Shown here one piece after another: positions 1,749 through 47,466 of a stretch of 64,000 nucleotides of DNA (positions within the stretch are counted from its first letter, which is position 1; every line of letters starts with the position of its first letter). The translations under genes were made by a program, and so were the position numbers. The stretch lies in the NCBI GenBank assembly GCA_017404385.1, contig JAFRCK010000017.1:3419-67418 (forward strand). Direction: 5' to 3'. This DNA is from Bacilli bacterium. Its GTDB lineage: Bacteria; Bacillota_I; Bacilli_A; RF39; UBA660. The notes below the pieces were generated by a model. It did no database searches, had not been told where the DNA came from, and was given only the letters and a program-made list of their open reading frames with translations.

Positions 1749-1771
1749 TTCTTATTCAGAACTATTTTTTT
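1741..1771. terminator. bidirectional rho-independent terminator shared by convergent genes
   Basis: A-run, perfect stem AGTTCT/AGAACT (1747-1763), T7 run. Both stop codons (TAG 1746-1748 on + and TAA 1752-1754 on -) lie inside the hairpin. Confidence 0.6.
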
Positions 1772-2750
1772 CTAACTTATTTAAATAATATATTACAATT
1801 CCACCTAGTACAAAAGCAACAATTAATCCGCATACTTTTTCAGTTGTAAATGTAATACTTGATTCTAGATTCATTGGTAGTATTATTGCACTTGATATTA
1901 TAAATCCTAGTATTAAACTCATAGTATTTCCTTTATGATTTTTTAATAACTTAGTTAATATCTTAGAACTTACTACAATACCAATTAAAACTCCTATTGC
2001 TAATATACCAAGTTTAAGATATATATTAAAATCAAATTTAGTTATATCAGCAACATATCCTCTAATTAAATCATATCTTCCTAATACAAGCATTACCATA
2101 GATCCAGATATACCTGGGAATATCATAGTAGCACCACCAACAATACCTAAACCAAATAATATTAACATATTCATAAATCCACTATCATCAGTTACTTTAC
2201 TTATACCACCATGTAAGTTAAAGTATTCAAGTATACCAATAATTGCAACTCCAACTAAGAAATAAACTATATTGAATTTTTCATTTTTCATTTCTTTATT
2301 ATATATTAATGGAATACTAAATATAATTAGACCCATAAACCAGAATATTGTTTCTGCTTCCATATGATCTAGAGTATAACCTAATATTTTAGCAAATGCA
2401 ACTAGACCAACCGCAACTCCAATTATTACTTTTAATACATATATAAAACTTTGTTTTCTAGTATCTGTCTTCTTTTTAAATATATCACTTATTGAATATG
2501 CTAATTTATCAAATAGACCAAAAATAACCATCATTGTTCCACCTGATACACCAGGTATAATATTTGCTATTCCAACAGCGATTCCTCCAAAGAATGATCT
2601 TAATTCAAATCTCTTTTCTTTATTTTTCTTTTCTAATTTCTTCTTATTCTTTTCTTCTTTCTTTAATACTCTTAGTTTTTGTTTTTTTGCCTTAGAAAGA
2701 TGTTTTTTCTTTTTCTTAGGTTCTTTTTCTTTTTTACCAAATAGTTTCAT
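1752..2750 (-). CDS. DUF368-family polytopic membrane protein (possible undecaprenyl-phosphate transporter type) with lysine-rich N-terminal tail
   Basis: Repeated PGVSGGT / PGISGSM motifs typical of DUF368, about 8 TM helices. GGAGG RBS 8 nt upstream of ATG (complement of 2748-2750). First about 55 residues are about 50% K. Confidence 0.5.
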   Translation of the reverse strand: MKLFGKKEKEPKKKKKHLSKAKKQKLRVLKKEEKNKKKLEKKNKEKRFELRSFFGGIAVGIANIIPGVSGGTMMVIFGLFDKLAYSISDIFKKKTDTRKQSFIYVLKVIIGVAVGLVAFAKILGYTLDHMEAETIFWFMGLIIFSIPLIYNKEMKNEKFNIVYFLVGVAIIGILEYFNLHGGISKVTDDSGFMNMLILFGLGIVGGATMIFPGISGSMVMLVLGRYDLIRGYVADITKFDFNIYLKLGILAIGVLIGIVVSSKILTKLLKNHKGNTMSLILGFIISSAIILPMNLESSITFTTEKVCGLIVAFVLGGIVIYYLNKLEKNSSE

Positions 2751-2846
2751 GTCTTTAACCTCCAATATAATTATATCATAAATCATTGACTTTTAAACGA
2801 ATAATTGTTAAAATTACATTGAATTTAAAGAGAAAGGAGTGAAAAC

Positions 2847-2945
2847 ATGAAGATAAGATTTTTTAATATTTATAATTTGTTTTTGGTTAGTAGTAAAATT
2901 AAGGGGAAGAATCGTTTTGTTTTTGCTCCTGGTTTTACTTGCTAA
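2847..2945 (+). CDS. 32-codon leader peptide ORF (MKIRFFNIYNLFLVSSKIKGKNRFVFAPGFTC) upstream of ABC exporter
   Basis: Strong RBS AAAGGAGTGA 6 nt before ATG. Stop codon abuts a terminator hairpin. Confidence 0.3.
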   Translation: MKIRFFNIYNLFLVSSKIKGKNRFVFAPGFTC

Positions 2946-2968
2946 CTACTTTTAAAGTAGTTTTTTTA
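2944..2968 (+). terminator. intrinsic terminator/attenuator in leader of ABC exporter
   Basis: AACTACTTT / AAAGTAGTT perfect complementary arms followed by T7. Lies between the leader ORF and the ABC start. Confidence 0.45.
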
Positions 2969-3099
2969 ATGGAATAAAAGAGGTGAGTGAAATGGAAAAG
3001 AAAAAAAAGAAGAAAAAAGAATAATTAAAAAAATATAAAAGTATATGGAACTTATTAAAAGAAGATAAAAAAAATTTAATTATATCTTCTATATTACTT

Positions 3100-4743
3100 G
3101 TGTTAGCGTCTCTAGCAACTTTGCCAACTGGATTTTTAAATGGTGCTGCTACTGAAAGTATAACTAAGATGGAGTTGAATAAAGCAGTAATTTATTTAAT
3201 AATTTACTTTTTAATAGTAGTATTAATGGAGGGTGTTTTATATAGCTCTGCTAGTGCAATGCTTCAAAAAGTTGAATCTAAATTAACTAGAAAATTAGGT
3301 TTTAATACTTATGTTAAAGCATTAAATTTGCCACCAAAGGCATATGAAAAACTATCATCTGGTGAAGTAATAAATAGAATAACAACAGATGCTGATTCAT
3401 TATCATTTGTATTTGGTAGATTACTTGATACATTTACTCATATTGCAGGTTCAATTTTATTATTATTTTATATTTTTTATATATCTCCAATTATTGGTTT
3501 AGAAATAGTATTTGTCGTTGCCATACTTGTATTTGTTATTAAAAAATATAATCCAATACTTGTAAAAACACATAAAGAAAGAAGAAAGGAACAAGATAAG
3601 TTTGCATCTCTTACTAATGAATCAATAAGAGGTATAAGAGAATTAAAAACTCTAGGTATTAAAAATAATTTAATTACTGATATGAGAGATTTAATTAAAG
3701 ATATATTAAATACTAGTATAAAAGAAATTGATACTAGAAGAAGATATGATATAATTACTAGATTTATAAGAGTATCATTAGAGGTAGGATGCTTTATAAC
3801 ATGTATTATATTATTATATTATGGAAAGATTAATTTAACTTTCTTTATAGCCATGACTTATTATATATATAGATATATGTATTTAATGGATTCTATTAAT
3901 GTTTTAACCACTGATTATCAAAGAGTATCTGTTGCGGTAGGAAGAGTAAATGAATTATTAAATAATGAATTATATCAAGATGAGAAATTTGGTGATAAAG
4001 AAATTGATTCTAAAGGAATAATTGAATTTAAAAATGTAACATTTGGTTATCCAAGAGAAAGGAATATTTTAGAAGATTTTAATCTTAAACTTGAACCAAA
4101 TAAAAAGATTGCTATTGTAGGTAAATCTGGTCAAGGTAAATCAACATTATTTAATCTTTTAACTAGAGTATTTGATGTAAAAAAAGGATCTATAACACTA
4201 GATGGAGTTAATATTGAATCTTTAACTGAAGAAAGTTTAAGAAAAAATATTTCTATAATTAGACAAGAGCCATTTGTATTTAATAGAACTATTAAAGAAA
4301 ATTTTAAAATATTAAATCCAAAAATAAATGTAGATGAAATTAGAGAATATACTAAACTTGCATATTTAGATGACTATATAATGTCTTTACCTAAGCAGTA
4401 TGATACTTTACTAGGTGAAGGTGGAGTAAATTTATCAGGTGGTCAAAAACAAAGACTAGCTATAGCAAGAACACTTGCTAAAAAGTCTAGAGTAATACTT
4501 TTTGATGAAGCAACTTCTGCACTTGATAATAATTCACAGGAATACATTAAGAAAACAATTGATAACTTAGTTAAAGATCATACAGTTATTATAGTTGCGC
4601 ATAGATTATCTACTATAATGGATGCTGATATAATATATGTTGTTGATAAAGGAAAAATAGCTGGTTCAGGTACACATGAAGAACTATTAAAAACAAATAA
4701 TATATATAAAAACTTATATGAAACTGAATCTTTAAATTCATAA
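3100..4743 (+). CDS. ABC exporter, fused transmembrane domain + ATPase (type I exporter)
   Basis: Six-helix TMD then Walker A GKSGQGKST, signature LSGGQKQR, Walker B ILFDEATSALD, H-loop AHRL. GTG 3100 is the track start. The reading frame is open from 3025 and an ATG with perfect RBS lies at 2992 in the same frame, separated by an in-frame TAA at 3022-3024. Confidence 0.7.
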   Translation: MLASLATLPTGFLNGAATESITKMELNKAVIYLIIYFLIVVLMEGVLYSSASAMLQKVESKLTRKLGFNTYVKALNLPPKAYEKLSSGEVINRITTDADSLSFVFGRLLDTFTHIAGSILLLFYIFYISPIIGLEIVFVVAILVFVIKKYNPILVKTHKERRKEQDKFASLTNESIRGIRELKTLGIKNNLITDMRDLIKDILNTSIKEIDTRRRYDIITRFIRVSLEVGCFITCIILLYYGKINLTFFIAMTYYIYRYMYLMDSINVLTTDYQRVSVAVGRVNELLNNELYQDEKFGDKEIDSKGIIEFKNVTFGYPRERNILEDFNLKLEPNKKIAIVGKSGQGKSTLFNLLTRVFDVKKGSITLDGVNIESLTEESLRKNISIIRQEPFVFNRTIKENFKILNPKINVDEIREYTKLAYLDDYIMSLPKQYDTLLGEGGVNLSGGQKQRLAIARTLAKKSRVILFDEATSALDNNSQEYIKKTIDNLVKDHTVIIVAHRLSTIMDADIIYVVDKGKIAGSGTHEELLKTNNIYKNLYETESLNS

Positions 4744-6957: not shown

Positions 6958-7034
6958 GGCGATGTAGCTCAGTTGGCTAGAGCGTTCGGTTCATACCCGA
7001 AAGGTCGTGGGTTCGACCCCCTCCGTCGCTACCA
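6958..7034 (+). tRNA. tRNA-Met (anticodon CAT), elongator type
   Basis: 77-nt cloverleaf: acceptor GGCGATG/CGTCGCT, D-arm GCTC..GAGC, anticodon stem TTCGG/CCGAA with loop TTCATAC, T-arm GTGGG TTCGACC CCCTC, encoded CCA. Near-identical to Bacillus elongator tRNA-Met. tRNA-Ile(LAU) cannot be excluded from sequence alone. Confidence 0.85.
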
Positions 7035-7045
7035 TATAGATTATA

Positions 7046-7070
7046 ACCGAACTTAACAGTTCGTTTTTTT
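7046..7070 (+). terminator. rho-independent terminator after tRNA
   Basis: CGAACT taac AGTTCG + T7. Confidence 0.6.
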
Positions 7071-44395: not shown

Positions 44396-44444
44396 AAAAC
44401 TATTGAAAAAATATTAAAAATATAATATAATTTAAATTGTTTAG

Positions 44445-44635
44445 TGATGAAGAAAAGTAGTAGTAAAAGAATACTATTTTAGAGAGTTAACGGTTGGTGA
44501 AAGTTAATTAGTACAATTTTATGAACTTGTTTTGGAACTAAAAACGTGTAATTACGATATAAATAGAGTGCATAGATTCCTATGAAGTAAGGTGGTACCG
44601 CTAGATATAGTCCTTACATTATAGGAATTTTTTTG
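44445..44635 (+). promoter_or_regulatory. T-box riboswitch leader (Leu-type by context) with terminator
   Basis: AGAGAG...GGTTGGTG stem I elements (44481-). T-box core AAGGTGGTACCGC (44589-44602). Terminator ATTCCTATGAAGTAAGG/CCTTACATTATAGGAAT + T8 (44576-44635). TATAAT at about 44421. Confidence 0.65.
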
Positions 44636-44656
44636 TTTAGAAAGGGAGAATCTTTT

Positions 44657-45052
44657 ATGAATTTTTTAAAATATTTTTTGATTTACGTTGCTTTTTTTAT
44701 AATTACTTATTTTGTATATTATTGGTTTTCTGTTAGACCAGTTGTTAATAATTATAAAAAGAAAAAGAAAGGTAAGAAAATAAAAAAAGAAAGAGAATTA
44801 CCTACTGAAATTAAATTATTAAAAAGTTATTATAAAGTTGATGTAGATAAAATAGGTGAAGTTAGAACATTAAGAATTGTTAATTTTGTTAATGCGGCTT
44901 TTTTATCATTACTAGTGATGATAGTTTTACCATTTAAAGAAGTTTGGCTTAAATTAATAATACTATTTGTTTTAATATTACCTTCTATATGGGTAGTGTA
45001 TTATTTTTTAGCAAAGTTTTTAAAGTATTTAGAGAGGAAGAGTGAAAGATAA
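44657..45052 (+). CDS. small 3-TM membrane protein between T-box and leuS
   Basis: AAGGGAGA RBS. Stop overlaps leuS ATG (TAATG). Confidence 0.45.
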   Translation: MNFLKYFLIYVAFFIITYFVYYWFSVRPVVNNYKKKKKGKKIKKERELPTEIKLLKSYYKVDVDKIGEVRTLRIVNFVNAAFLSLLVMIVLPFKEVWLKLIILFVLILPSIWVVYYFLAKFLKYLERKSER

Positions 45053-47466
45053 TGTATAATTTCAAGGAAGTAGAAAAAAAATGGATAGATTATTGGGATA
45101 AAAATAAAACATTTAAAACTGATACAACTGATTTTAGCAAACCTAAGTATTATGCTTTAGATATGTTTCCTTATCCATCCGGTGTGGGATTACACGCAGG
45201 ACACGTTGAAGGGTATACAGCAACTGATATAGTAGCAAGAATGAAAAGAATGCAAGGTTTTAATGTTCTTCATCCAATTGGATATGATTCATTTGGTTTA
45301 CCAGCAGAACAATTTGCAATTAAAACAGGTAAACATCCTGATGGATTTACACAAAAGAACATTGAATATTTTACTAAACAGTTAAAGACAATTGGTTTAT
45401 CATTTGATTGGGATAGATGTATATCTTCTCATGAACCATCATATTATAAATGGACACAATGGATATTTAAAAGATTATATGAGGATGGACTTGCTAAACA
45501 AGTAGATATGCCTGTTAACTGGTGTGAAGAACTTGGTACAGTTCTTGCAAATGATGAAGTTATTGATGGTAAAAGTGAAAGAGGCGGATATCCTGTAGTT
45601 CGTAAAAATATGAAACAATGGGTTATTGATATGCCTAAATATGCAGAAGAATTACTTTCTGGATTAGATAATCTTGATTGGCCAGAATCAACTAAAGAAA
45701 TGCAAAGAAATTGGATTGGTAAATCAACAGGTGTAGAAGTAGATTTTGATATAGTAGGTGGAGGTAAGTTCTCTATTTATACTACATGTATTGAAACTAT
45801 ATATGGAATAACATTTATGGTACTAGCGCCAGAAAATAAATTAGTTGATGAATTAAAAGAAAGAATTACTAACTTCGATGAGGTAGAAAAGTATAGAGAA
45901 GAAACAGCTAAAAAATCTGATTTTGATAGAACAGAAATGAATAAAGATAAATCAGGTGTTAAACTAGAAGGTGTTATGGCTATCAATCCAGTTAATAATA
46001 AAGAAGTACCTATTTATCTTGGAGACTTTGTACTTGCTAGTTATGGAACTGGAGCTGTTATGGCAGTTCCAAGTCATGATCAAAGAGATTATGAATACGC
46101 TACTAAGTATAATATTCCTATGATTCAAGTAATTGATGGAAAAGATACAAAAGAATGTGCATTTGAAAAACAAGATTATCTTGGTAAAGGATGTAAATTA
46201 ATTAATAGTGAAGAATTTACTGGTTTAACTGTAGAAGAAGCTAAAGAAGCAATAACTGATAAATTAGTAAAAATGGGTAAAGGTAGAAAACAAGTTAACT
46301 ATAGAATTAGAGAATGGATATTTGCAAGACAAAGATATTGGGGAGAACCAATACCTATAGTTAACTTTGAAGATGGTACTCAAGAAGCATTAGATGATAG
46401 TAAATTACCATTAATATTGCCAGAACTTTCTGATTATAAAGGAAGAAATGGAAAAGCACCACTTGAAAGTGCAACTGAATGGAAAAATGTTACTATAAAT
46501 GGTAAAAAAGGTACTTTAGAAACATCTACTATGCCTGGTTCTGCTGCATCATCATGGTATTTCTTAAGATATATAGATCCTAAAAATGATAATGAATTTG
46601 GTGATAAGAAATTGATTGATCATTGGATGCCAGTAGATTTATATGTTGGTGGACCAGAACATGCTGTAGGACATTTGTTATATTCAAGAATGTGGAATGA
46701 GTATTTATACGATAAAGGATTAGTTGGAGTAAAAGAACCATTTACTAAATTAGTTCATCAAGGAATGATATTAGGAAGTAATGGTTTAAAGATGGGAAAA
46801 AGATATCCAGAATATGCTGTTGATCCAATTGATGTTGCTAGTGAATATGGAGCTGATACATTAAGACTTTATGAAATGTTTATGGGACCATTAGAAGCTG
46901 AAAAACCATGGAGTGAAGAAGGAGTTAATGGTGCTAAAAAGTTTATTGATAAAGTATATAGAATGTTTATGGAAGAATCAAAGATAAAAGAAGAAAAGAA
47001 TTCTAACTTAGATAAAATATATAATCAGACAGTTAAAAAAGTAACTGAAGATTATGAAAAATTATCATTTAATACAGCTATATCTCAATTAATGATATTC
47101 TTAAATGCAGTACAAAAAGAAGACGTATTCCCTAAAGAATATGCTGAAGGATTTATAAAATTGTTAAATCCTATCGCACCTTTTGTTACTGAAGAAATAT
47201 GGAATAAGCTAGGTCATAATGATACAATATCCTATGAACCATGGCCAACATTTGATGAATCAAAAATGATTGAGGATACATTTGAAATGGTAGTTCAAGT
47301 AAATGGAAAAGTAAGAGGTAAAATAGAAGTTGATTCTAATACTTCAGAAGAAAATATGAAAAAACTAGCTAAAGAAGTAGAAAATGTAAAGAACTATTTA
47401 GATGGACACGAAATAATAAAAGAAATTGTTATCCCTAAAAAACTAGTTAGTTTTGTTATTAAATAA
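45052..47466 (+). CDS. leuS: leucyl-tRNA synthetase
   Basis: HIGH region PYPSGVGLHAGHVEGY. Editing and anticodon-binding regions collinear with LeuRS. 804 aa. Terminator 47464-47497. Confidence 0.9.
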   Translation: MYNFKEVEKKWIDYWDKNKTFKTDTTDFSKPKYYALDMFPYPSGVGLHAGHVEGYTATDIVARMKRMQGFNVLHPIGYDSFGLPAEQFAIKTGKHPDGFTQKNIEYFTKQLKTIGLSFDWDRCISSHEPSYYKWTQWIFKRLYEDGLAKQVDMPVNWCEELGTVLANDEVIDGKSERGGYPVVRKNMKQWVIDMPKYAEELLSGLDNLDWPESTKEMQRNWIGKSTGVEVDFDIVGGGKFSIYTTCIETIYGITFMVLAPENKLVDELKERITNFDEVEKYREETAKKSDFDRTEMNKDKSGVKLEGVMAINPVNNKEVPIYLGDFVLASYGTGAVMAVPSHDQRDYEYATKYNIPMIQVIDGKDTKECAFEKQDYLGKGCKLINSEEFTGLTVEEAKEAITDKLVKMGKGRKQVNYRIREWIFARQRYWGEPIPIVNFEDGTQEALDDSKLPLILPELSDYKGRNGKAPLESATEWKNVTINGKKGTLETSTMPGSAASSWYFLRYIDPKNDNEFGDKKLIDHWMPVDLYVGGPEHAVGHLLYSRMWNEYLYDKGLVGVKEPFTKLVHQGMILGSNGLKMGKRYPEYAVDPIDVASEYGADTLRLYEMFMGPLEAEKPWSEEGVNGAKKFIDKVYRMFMEESKIKEEKNSNLDKIYNQTVKKVTEDYEKLSFNTAISQLMIFLNAVQKEDVFPKEYAEGFIKLLNPIAPFVTEEIWNKLGHNDTISYEPWPTFDESKMIEDTFEMVVQVNGKVRGKIEVDSNTSEENMKKLAKEVENVKNYLDGHEIIKEIVIPKKLVSFVIK

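Follow-up and report, generated by a model that had tools for sequence, protein, structure and literature searches.

The window analysed here is a stretch of 64,000 nucleotides (nt) from contig JAFRCK010000017.1 of a Bacilli bacterium (assembly GCA_017404385.1). Between positions 2833 and 2967, just upstream of a gene for an ABC exporter, it carries a leader that is best explained, with a probability of about 0.6, as a ribosome-mediated transcription attenuator similar to those of bmrB and vmlR, controlling this single-gene exporter. By means of leader-peptide attenuators many Firmicutes turn on resistance genes only when their ribosomes are hit by a drug, and the examples studied so far come from a few cultured species. 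Comparison of related genomes suggests that the present leader belongs to a new family, absent from Rfam, which represents a known kind of switch and is found in uncultured gut Bacilli. Attenuation by a translating ribosome had already been proposed in a preliminary description of the same DNA, and the proposal is supported by a conserved open reading frame (ORF), by the constancy of its phase, by three covarying pairings and by a switch of the predicted fold when the region of the leader start codon (element A, which comprises the Shine-Dalgarno sequence, SD, and the AUG) is masked. The features of the leader in the window are listed below.

2833-2849, plus strand: element A, the leader SD AAAGGAGTGA (2833-2842) and AUG; its GGAG ends 7 nt 5' of the ATG
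2847-2945, plus strand: leader ORF of 32 codons, MKIRFFNIYNLFLVSSKIKGKNRFVFAPGFTC, with the stop codon TAA at 2943-2945; it runs through the predicted antiterminator, and its end overlaps the beginning of the putative terminator
2859-2869, plus strand: element B, TTTTTTAATAT (family consensus AATGTTTTTAATAAT), with both sequence and reading phase kept
2884-2949, plus strand: predicted antiterminator hairpin, 5' strand (elements C and D) 2884-2912, 3' strand 2919-2949
2918-2930, plus strand: element E, with the core GTTTTTGCTCC and two alternative partners, D (2901-2912) or the leader SD/AUG (2835-2847)
2944-2967, plus strand: terminator-like hairpin, AACTACTT / loop TTA / AAGTAGTT, with T7 at 2961-2967, from predicted fold and family pairing
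2980-2994, plus strand: exporter SD GAGGTGA (2980-2986) and ATG (2992-2994) in the exporter frame

The strong SD and the 32-codon ORF stopping at 2943-2945, as given in the preliminary description, are confirmed in the sequence. The hairpin had been described as a perfect 9+9-nt structure that begins with the nucleotide after the stop codon and is followed by T7. The palindrome (2944-2962, AACTACTTT-T-AAAGTAGTT) and the T7 are indeed there, but the palindrome begins within the stop codon and runs into the T7, and only 8 base pairs (bp) with a 3-nt loop can form. The 3' strand of the antiterminator is made up of element E, the last codons, the stop codon and the beginning of the terminator arm. 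An SD and an exporter-frame ATG had also been located further downstream; both are present, with only 10 codons open before an in-frame TAA at 3022-3024. There is no intervening gene between the leader ORF and the exporter.

The conservation of the leader has been evaluated by an ortholog scan using one genome per species, which gave 80 loci with exporter relatives at 52-93% identity, all of them in uncultured gut or rumen metagenome-assembled genomes carrying labels such as Bacilli, Tenericutes, Acholeplasma, Erysipelotrichaceae and similar. The sequences upstream of these orthologs show recurring peptide-like ends and a recurring ACTAC...GTAGT hairpin, and at most loci an SD block, AAAGAGAAAGGAGTGRRAAA, is followed by an ATG and an ORF of 20-41 codons. 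A covariance model trained on 37 non-redundant leaders was used to search 84 sources and gave 54 matches, one per locus, each ending at the exporter ATG; the SD block is nearly invariant in these 54 leaders. The family spans 50 of the 80 species-level genomes (about 50 species) and reaches exporters of an identity as low as ~59%; the arrangement is thus not a chance one. The window itself contains a single match to the model (2827-2997, 84.7 bits), and no second copy of the leader was detected with it in the 64 kb or in the flanks of 83 loci. The preliminary description had counted an absence of the small ORF from related genomes against its own proposal; SD and ORF are in fact kept in 54 loci, and gene callers have annotated the homologous small ORF (sORF) at the loci L083, L084 and L085. 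A search of positions 2760-3040 against Rfam 15 with E up to 10 returned only two chance-level matches (E = 5.6 and 9.8), and at the gathering thresholds the window gives only a T-box and a tRNA, both elsewhere.

A terminator-like hairpin has been found in ~36 of 45 non-redundant leaders. Its distance from the exporter start is 17-21 nt, and 28-29 nt in the lineage of the window. The gap between stop codon and terminator ranges across the family from -18 to +30 nt, being +7 to +30 in most leaders, so that the ending of the ORF inside the terminator, which had been presented as part of the geometry of the locus, holds for the small lineage of the window and not as a family trait. Three distant orthologs at 52-56% identity, L073 (L073:1248 upstream), L075 and L074, have leader sequences that are unrelated (e.g., MTTMNNLKQQIGLVTFSFAL). 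In each of the three, a 14-bp duplex of -21 to -23.5 kcal/mol joins the SD region to the 3' part of the sORF in the same leader, and a strong terminator follows. They provide independent support, the architecture having been retained and the sequence replaced.

The alignments show seven blocks, designated A to G. Beyond A and B, element C reads (A)TAGTAGT(C) and lies +35 to +57 from the ATG; D is a purine-rich sequence, AAGTGRGGAAA, that imitates A; E reads GTTTTTTCAC or TTTTCC; F and G read GACTACT and AGTAGTC, respectively, and are followed by the U-run. Three mutually exclusive pairings connect these blocks: F with G in the terminator, C with F closed over D with E in the antiterminator, and A with E. 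The last is an anti-antiterminator, since it removes E from D and crosses C:F.

These pairings were judged by explicit pair counts with slid controls and by folds of the single sequences. The terminator stem is 91% paired over 53 distinct leaders, and at 8 of its 9 pairs both members have changed. When the leaders are aligned by plain MAFFT, the state made of terminator and A:E is 85.9% paired, against 40-62% in slid controls, and the antiterminator state 72.8%, against 41-60%. In a model-based alignment of the 53 distinct leaders, terminator plus A:E again reaches 85.9% (slid controls 43-62%), 12 of the 16 pairs being changed on both sides and covariation amounting to 0.291, against at most 0.143 in slid controls; neither the terminator nor the A:E helix is part of the model behind this alignment. 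The antiterminator, to whose structure the same alignment is fitted, is 78.9% paired in it (slid controls 42-62%), and 17 of 18 pairs have changed on both sides. Within the A:E helix, the column pair 16-152 is GC in 15 leaders and AU in 14, and the pair 17-151 is GC in 20 and AU in 16. Moreover, the columns of E covary with both of its partners, A and D. As regards C:F, in most of 34 leaders the best duplex that the 5' arm of the terminator can form with the leader upstream of it is located at one common position (+35 to +57), and compensatory variants track the changes of the terminator (GATAG/CTATC, GCAGT/ACTGC, GGTGG/CTACC).

An alternative antiterminator pairing, which the preliminary description had suggested looking for, therefore exists and covaries. 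In the window it forms a 65-nt hairpin (2884-2949) of -24 kcal/mol (z = -5.68), which none of 200 shuffles equalled; located in the ORF from codon 13 onwards, this hairpin consumes the first 5-6 nt of the terminator 5' arm. It is the most striking structure of the leader and is absent from the preliminary description. As a separate observation, many leaders carry in the loop and 3' arm of D:E (columns ~137-152 of alignment A3) the sequence CTTCTTTG TTTTTT, containing TTCTTT. The latter agrees with TTNTTT, the NusG pause motif cited for the leader of vmlR; at 25% G+C this agreement may be due to chance.

The three pairings are reflected in the predicted folds. The unmasked full-length RNA of the window has the terminator formed and A paired elsewhere, at -28.9 kcal/mol, and its A:E domain (2835-2847 with 2918-2930, in the fold of 2833-2932) reaches -22 kcal/mol (z = -3.45). 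When the AUG region is masked, the antiterminator becomes the minimum free energy (MFE) structure even with G present (-24.7). Masking consisted of holding the positions -14 to +16 around the leader AUG single-stranded, in imitation of a ribosome, and was applied to 23 representative leaders. A:E and the terminator form in the unmasked RNA of 21 of these leaders. If A is masked before G has been transcribed, all 23 show pairing of F with C, and if A is masked in the full-length RNA, the antiterminator remains the MFE structure in 14, the window included.

The folds also bear on a translational control of the erm type, in which the 3' end of the leader ORF would mask the exporter SD and stalling on the leader would free it. 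The preliminary description had drawn an analogy with erm leaders. The MFE structure of the window does pair the last leader codons (~2931-2943) with the exporter SD region, and the unpaired probability of this SD rises from 0.19 to 0.36 on masking of the leader AUG. However, over 45 leaders the exporter SD has a mean unpaired probability of 0.61 whether A is masked or not, the SD being sequestered only in the window and a few others, and the conserved, covarying features are the terminator and its U-run. As a family feature the analogy does not hold, and we give this explanation very little credence.

The existence of a translated frame is suggested by a strong comparative signature. Of 53 distinct leaders, 52 have an ORF that starts at the leader ATG, is open beyond E and stops before the end of G. 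In each of the two remaining frames the number is 0 of 53, and dinucleotide-shuffled versions of the stretch are open, on average, in 8% of trials. The phase of the elements relative to the ATG is kept in 52 of 53 leaders for B, 50 of 50 for C, 48 of 53 for D and 46 of 53 for E. Since the distance between the ATG and the elements varies by tens of nt while the phase is constant, insertions and deletions (indels) have occurred in multiples of three. In the unpaired parts, the substitution rates at codon positions 1, 2 and 3 are 0.207, 0.201 and 0.248. As the codon positions change at near-equal rates and the frame is kept, it follows that an open frame is required and that the amino acid sequence is barely selected. 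Such a pattern is expected of a leader that senses the position of the ribosome, and it speaks against a functional or exported peptide. Conservation of the peptide and not of the RNA was considered as well and discarded: the frame seemed at first to be lineage-specific, the phase turned out to be mostly conserved, so that the frame alone does not decide, and it is the codon-position rates that discriminate.

The same data help to weigh the idea of a ribosome-independent riboswitch, or of a leader binding a protein or RNA, in which the D:E/C:F domain would be the aptamer and the ORF incidental. Strong covariation at the RNA level would be in line with this, as would the want of clear selection on the peptide sequence and the conservation of the loop CTTCTTTG and of element B without a pairing role. 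Nevertheless, an incidental ORF would not be expected to be open so much more often than the other frames or the shuffles, nor would indels keep its phase; the extended SD is ideally spaced before an invariant ATG, this SD/AUG is itself one strand of the switch, and Rfam offers no match above chance level at E up to 10. A mechanism of this kind is therefore considered quite improbable.

It is less probable still that the sORF encodes a functional peptide (a pheromone, a bacteriocin-like peptide or a membrane peptide) that is exported by the pump or works with it, the hairpin setting the ratio of peptide to pump transcript. A gene for a small hydrophobic peptide directly 5' of an ABC exporter is a common arrangement, and the C-terminal parts of the leader peptides are similar (LLCFFTY, VFAPGFTC, xFP). 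However, these similar residues fall within the E strand, for which covariation with its RNA partners is seen. Moreover, the near-equal codon-position rates argue against selection on a peptide, the lengths vary from 20 to 41 codons with widely different sequences, the exporter has no peptidase domain and the peptide no double-glycine (GG) motif, and in the distant orthologs the RNA architecture persists although the peptides are unrelated.

Two further candidates concerning the coding sequence were rejected. A macrolide-type +x+ stalling motif at the N-terminus is seen in the window (K-I-R) and in several other leaders; it is not general and is expected in Lys-rich, AT-rich genomes. Element B, which in translation reads N-V-F-N-N (columns ~60-76 of A3), was hinted by the window fold to pair with C/D and so to lock the OFF state, but the family mean of this pairing is z = +0.42, no better than shuffles.

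On the basis of these elements, a model with three states can be drawn in which the sensor would be the position of the ribosome. With no ribosome on the leader, A:E would form, the terminator would follow and the exporter gene would be OFF. A ribosome translating normally would unwind the 5' strand of the antiterminator as the polymerase nears the U-run, so that the terminator would again form and expression remain OFF. If instead the ribosome were arrested at or just after the start codon (about codons 1-7), A would be covered and C free; D:E and C:F could then form before G exists, and the polymerase would read through (ON). Most likely, then, the pump is switched on by ribosome stalling. 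As a conjecture, the most plausible signal would be a drug or a stress that blocks initiation or early elongation, with which the want of a common motif in the first codons would agree.

The polarity could also be the opposite, with the leader sensing the coupling of translation to transcription, as in pyrBI or the tet(M) of Tn916: a ribosome following closely at the end of the ORF would cover the 5' arm of the terminator and allow read-through, and slow or absent translation would lead to termination. The position of the stop codon in the window and its close relatives lends itself to this scheme, because 2943-2945 overlaps the terminator 5' arm (2944-2951) and a ribosome on the last codons would cover that arm; the A:E pairing, OFF without a ribosome, is compatible with it too. 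In most of the family, however, the gap of +7 to +30 nt places the terminator beyond the reach of a terminating ribosome, the conserved and covarying C:F antiterminator would be left without a role, and masking the start region is by itself sufficient for the antiterminator fold. We regard the opposite polarity as unlikely.

A number of points weigh against induction by an arrested ribosome as proposed here. Leader translation, termination by the hairpin, the polarity of the switch and its inducer are all things that we infer from nucleotide sequences. In the lineage of the window the stop codon abuts the terminator, a geometry that fits the opposite polarity equally well. The terminator hairpin of the window is weak when taken alone: with 2 G-C pairs and -5.8 kcal/mol (z = -3.0), it was missed by a generic terminator scan that requires at least 3 G-C pairs. 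Furthermore, 8 orthologous leaders have the SD, the sORF and A/D/E and no terminator-like hairpin (the leaders without it are L006, L015, L042, L046/L052, L047, L063, L067 and L072). As to the folds, the terminator is still the MFE structure in 9 of the 23 leaders when A is masked in the full-length RNA, and read-through must for this reason be kinetic. The pairing statistics of the antiterminator are weaker in the unfitted MAFFT alignment (72.8%) than in the alignment fitted to it, and RNAalifold predicted no pairs on the 54-sequence model alignment, which is gappy and AU-rich. The first codons of the leaders share no conserved stalling motif. Element B is conserved yet unexplained, no pairing partner that beats shuffles having been found for it. 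Lastly, the premature TAA in the exporter frame may mean that in the window the switch controls a dead gene.

Among known systems, the closest parallels are found in Bacillus subtilis. In bmrB, the terminator, antiterminator and anti-antiterminator overlap the leader coding region; according to the model, efficient translation of the leader prevents the antiterminator and leads to termination, and slowed ribosomes permit the antiterminator and hence read-through (Reilman et al., 2014; PMC4191407). The bmrB gene has 162 nt, its coding region includes the terminator, and no definite role was assigned to its anti-antiterminator (PMC4191407). As in bmrB-bmrCD, the leader ORF described here is co-transcribed, by prediction, with an ABC exporter in which membrane and ATPase domains are fused. 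Unlike bmrB, the present ORF has only ~30 codons, the terminator lies at or after its end, and the anti-antiterminator is the SD/AUG of the leader itself, with covariation. The target also differs from that of bmrBCD, being one half transporter and not a BmrC/BmrD pair; the leaders are compared here by architecture.

For the leader of vmlR, it has been shown experimentally that arrest at the start of the upstream ORF (uORF) blocks an anti-antiterminator that holds the uORF start region, so that an antiterminator with an apical hairpin can form and intrinsic termination is averted (Takada et al., 2022; PMC9226507). With its 3 codons, the vmlR uORF is contained in the anti-antiterminator hairpin; the SD of vmlR is masked by a fourth hairpin, and the product is a soluble ABC-F ribosome-protection factor (PMC9226507). 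The three-state logic proposed for the present leader is identical to that of vmlR. The two systems differ in that the ORF here traverses the whole antiterminator, masking of the SD is not conserved and the gene encodes a membrane exporter. More generally, unlike the targets of the antibiotic resistance (ARE) ABC-F leaders (vmlR, lmo0919, msrD, vga), which have two ATPase domains, the target here has ABC_membrane and one ABC_tran domain. The leader of lmo0919 is reportedly a related member of the ARE ABC-F group (Dar et al., 2016).

A short translated leader is also shared with erm (ermC/ermB) and cat/cmlA, which sense drug-stalled ribosomes and re-pair the downstream RNA. Unlike these translational systems, in which an SD is unmasked and nascent-peptide motifs cause the stalling, the conserved output is here the terminator with its U-run, and no conserved peptide motif is under selection. 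The enterobacterial trp, his and pyrBI attenuators resemble the present one in that the choice between alternative 1:2, 2:3 and 3:4 pairings depends on where the leading ribosome stands with respect to RNA polymerase. Unlike them, with their regulatory codon runs or UTP-sensitive pausing, the present leader contains no codon run related to the gene. Attenuation by Asn through the conserved Asn-Asn codons of element B was considered and rejected: the codons are misplaced for induction, since stalling at them would leave the antiterminator strand covered by the ribosome, and the exporter is unrelated to Asn.

The gene downstream of the leader, and the interruption at its beginning, are given in the following lines.

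3022-3024, plus strand: in-frame TAA, codon 11 of the exporter frame; close relatives carry GAA here
3025-4743, plus strand: exporter body of 572 codons without further stops, an ABCB/MsbA-like half transporter (ABC_membrane + ABC_tran)

The closest relatives of the exporter with a solved structure are exporters of the P-glycoprotein and MsbA type. It passes no specific family (NCBIfam) cut-off, and no peptidase domain was found in it by a domain scan. The exporter gene is single, with no pair of the BmrC/BmrD type, and the next gene encodes MscL. The terms multidrug and antibiotic-inducible, applied to exporter and leader in the preliminary description, are assumptions; what is encoded is a generic ABCB/MsbA-like half transporter.

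From the ATG at 2992 the exporter frame reads MEKKKKKKKE and then meets the TAA. Five close relatives (given as L001 and L081-L085) have GAA at this codon and an uninterrupted Lys-rich N-terminal extension, e.g., MKKNKKKRKEELKKYKSIW. Most orthologs are without such an extension and begin with MKxLKEFKP at the equivalent of ~3019. After the TAA, the first in-frame candidate start is the GTG at 3100, and no canonical start precedes it. The TAA may have arisen by a recent nonsense mutation or through a sequencing error, or reinitiation may be involved. A frameshift in the runs of A was rejected as the cause of the interruption, since the gain or the loss of one A still leads to stops and the relatives differ simply by GAA to TAA. 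A metagenome scan for either allele at this site gave no match, and neither the leader peptide nor the exporter product starting at the GTG was found when searched for as an exact sequence.

The value of the leader as a defined family lies in a covariance model, three covarying helices, about 50 uncultured gut species and a membrane ABC exporter as the target; the class of mechanism is already established and no principle is altered. Going further, it may tentatively be suggested that the leader represents an order-wide and hitherto undescribed family of self-sequestering attenuators among the uncultured, low-GC Bacilli of the gut, a family in which the ribosome-binding site of the leader itself is a strand of the switch, and which might distinguish an absent, a moving and an arrested ribosome and turn on an ABCB-type exporter only in the third case. 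Such a switch would offer a compact and transferable sensor of early translation arrest. If the leader were inducible by translation inhibitors, it would be a clean natural case of a leader SD serving as the strand of an anti-antiterminator, the element whose role is open in bmrB. It would then also flag a likely and unrecognised inducible efflux determinant in common gut commensals, across about 50 species, and the ratio of terminated to read-through RNA could serve as a marker of antibiotic stress in gut metatranscriptomes.

The remaining features of the locus lie to the left of the leader.

2753-2991: intergenic region between a VCA0040-like gene on the minus strand (ATG at 2750) and the ABC exporter on the plus strand, which are divergent
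2786-2814, plus strand: promoter-like site, TTGACT, 17-nt spacer and TAAAAT with extended TG, a sigma-70-type consensus match of 10/12

The promoter-like site is also kept in close relatives (consensus match only), and a transcript start would be predicted near 2820. Given the position of this site, the leader would come first on a transcript of its own; the gene to the left is divergent. The G+C content of the window is ~25%. The gene order YlbF, VCA0040-like gene, leader, exporter and MscL is maintained in close relatives. The divergent VCA0040-like neighbour (1752-2750, minus strand) encodes a membrane protein similar to undecaprenyl-phosphate translocases (PF04018), with a Lys-rich N-terminal extension of ~45 residues.

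The two RNA elements recognised by Rfam elsewhere in the window are minor observations. A T-box leader at 44438-44618 on the plus strand, with 98.2 bits (above the gathering score), precedes ORFs at 44633-45052 and 45052-47466, the second of 804 amino acids. The other is a tRNA-Met (CAT) at 6958-7034 on the plus strand, followed by a terminator-like hairpin at 7048-7063, CGAACTTAACAGTTCG with a T-run.

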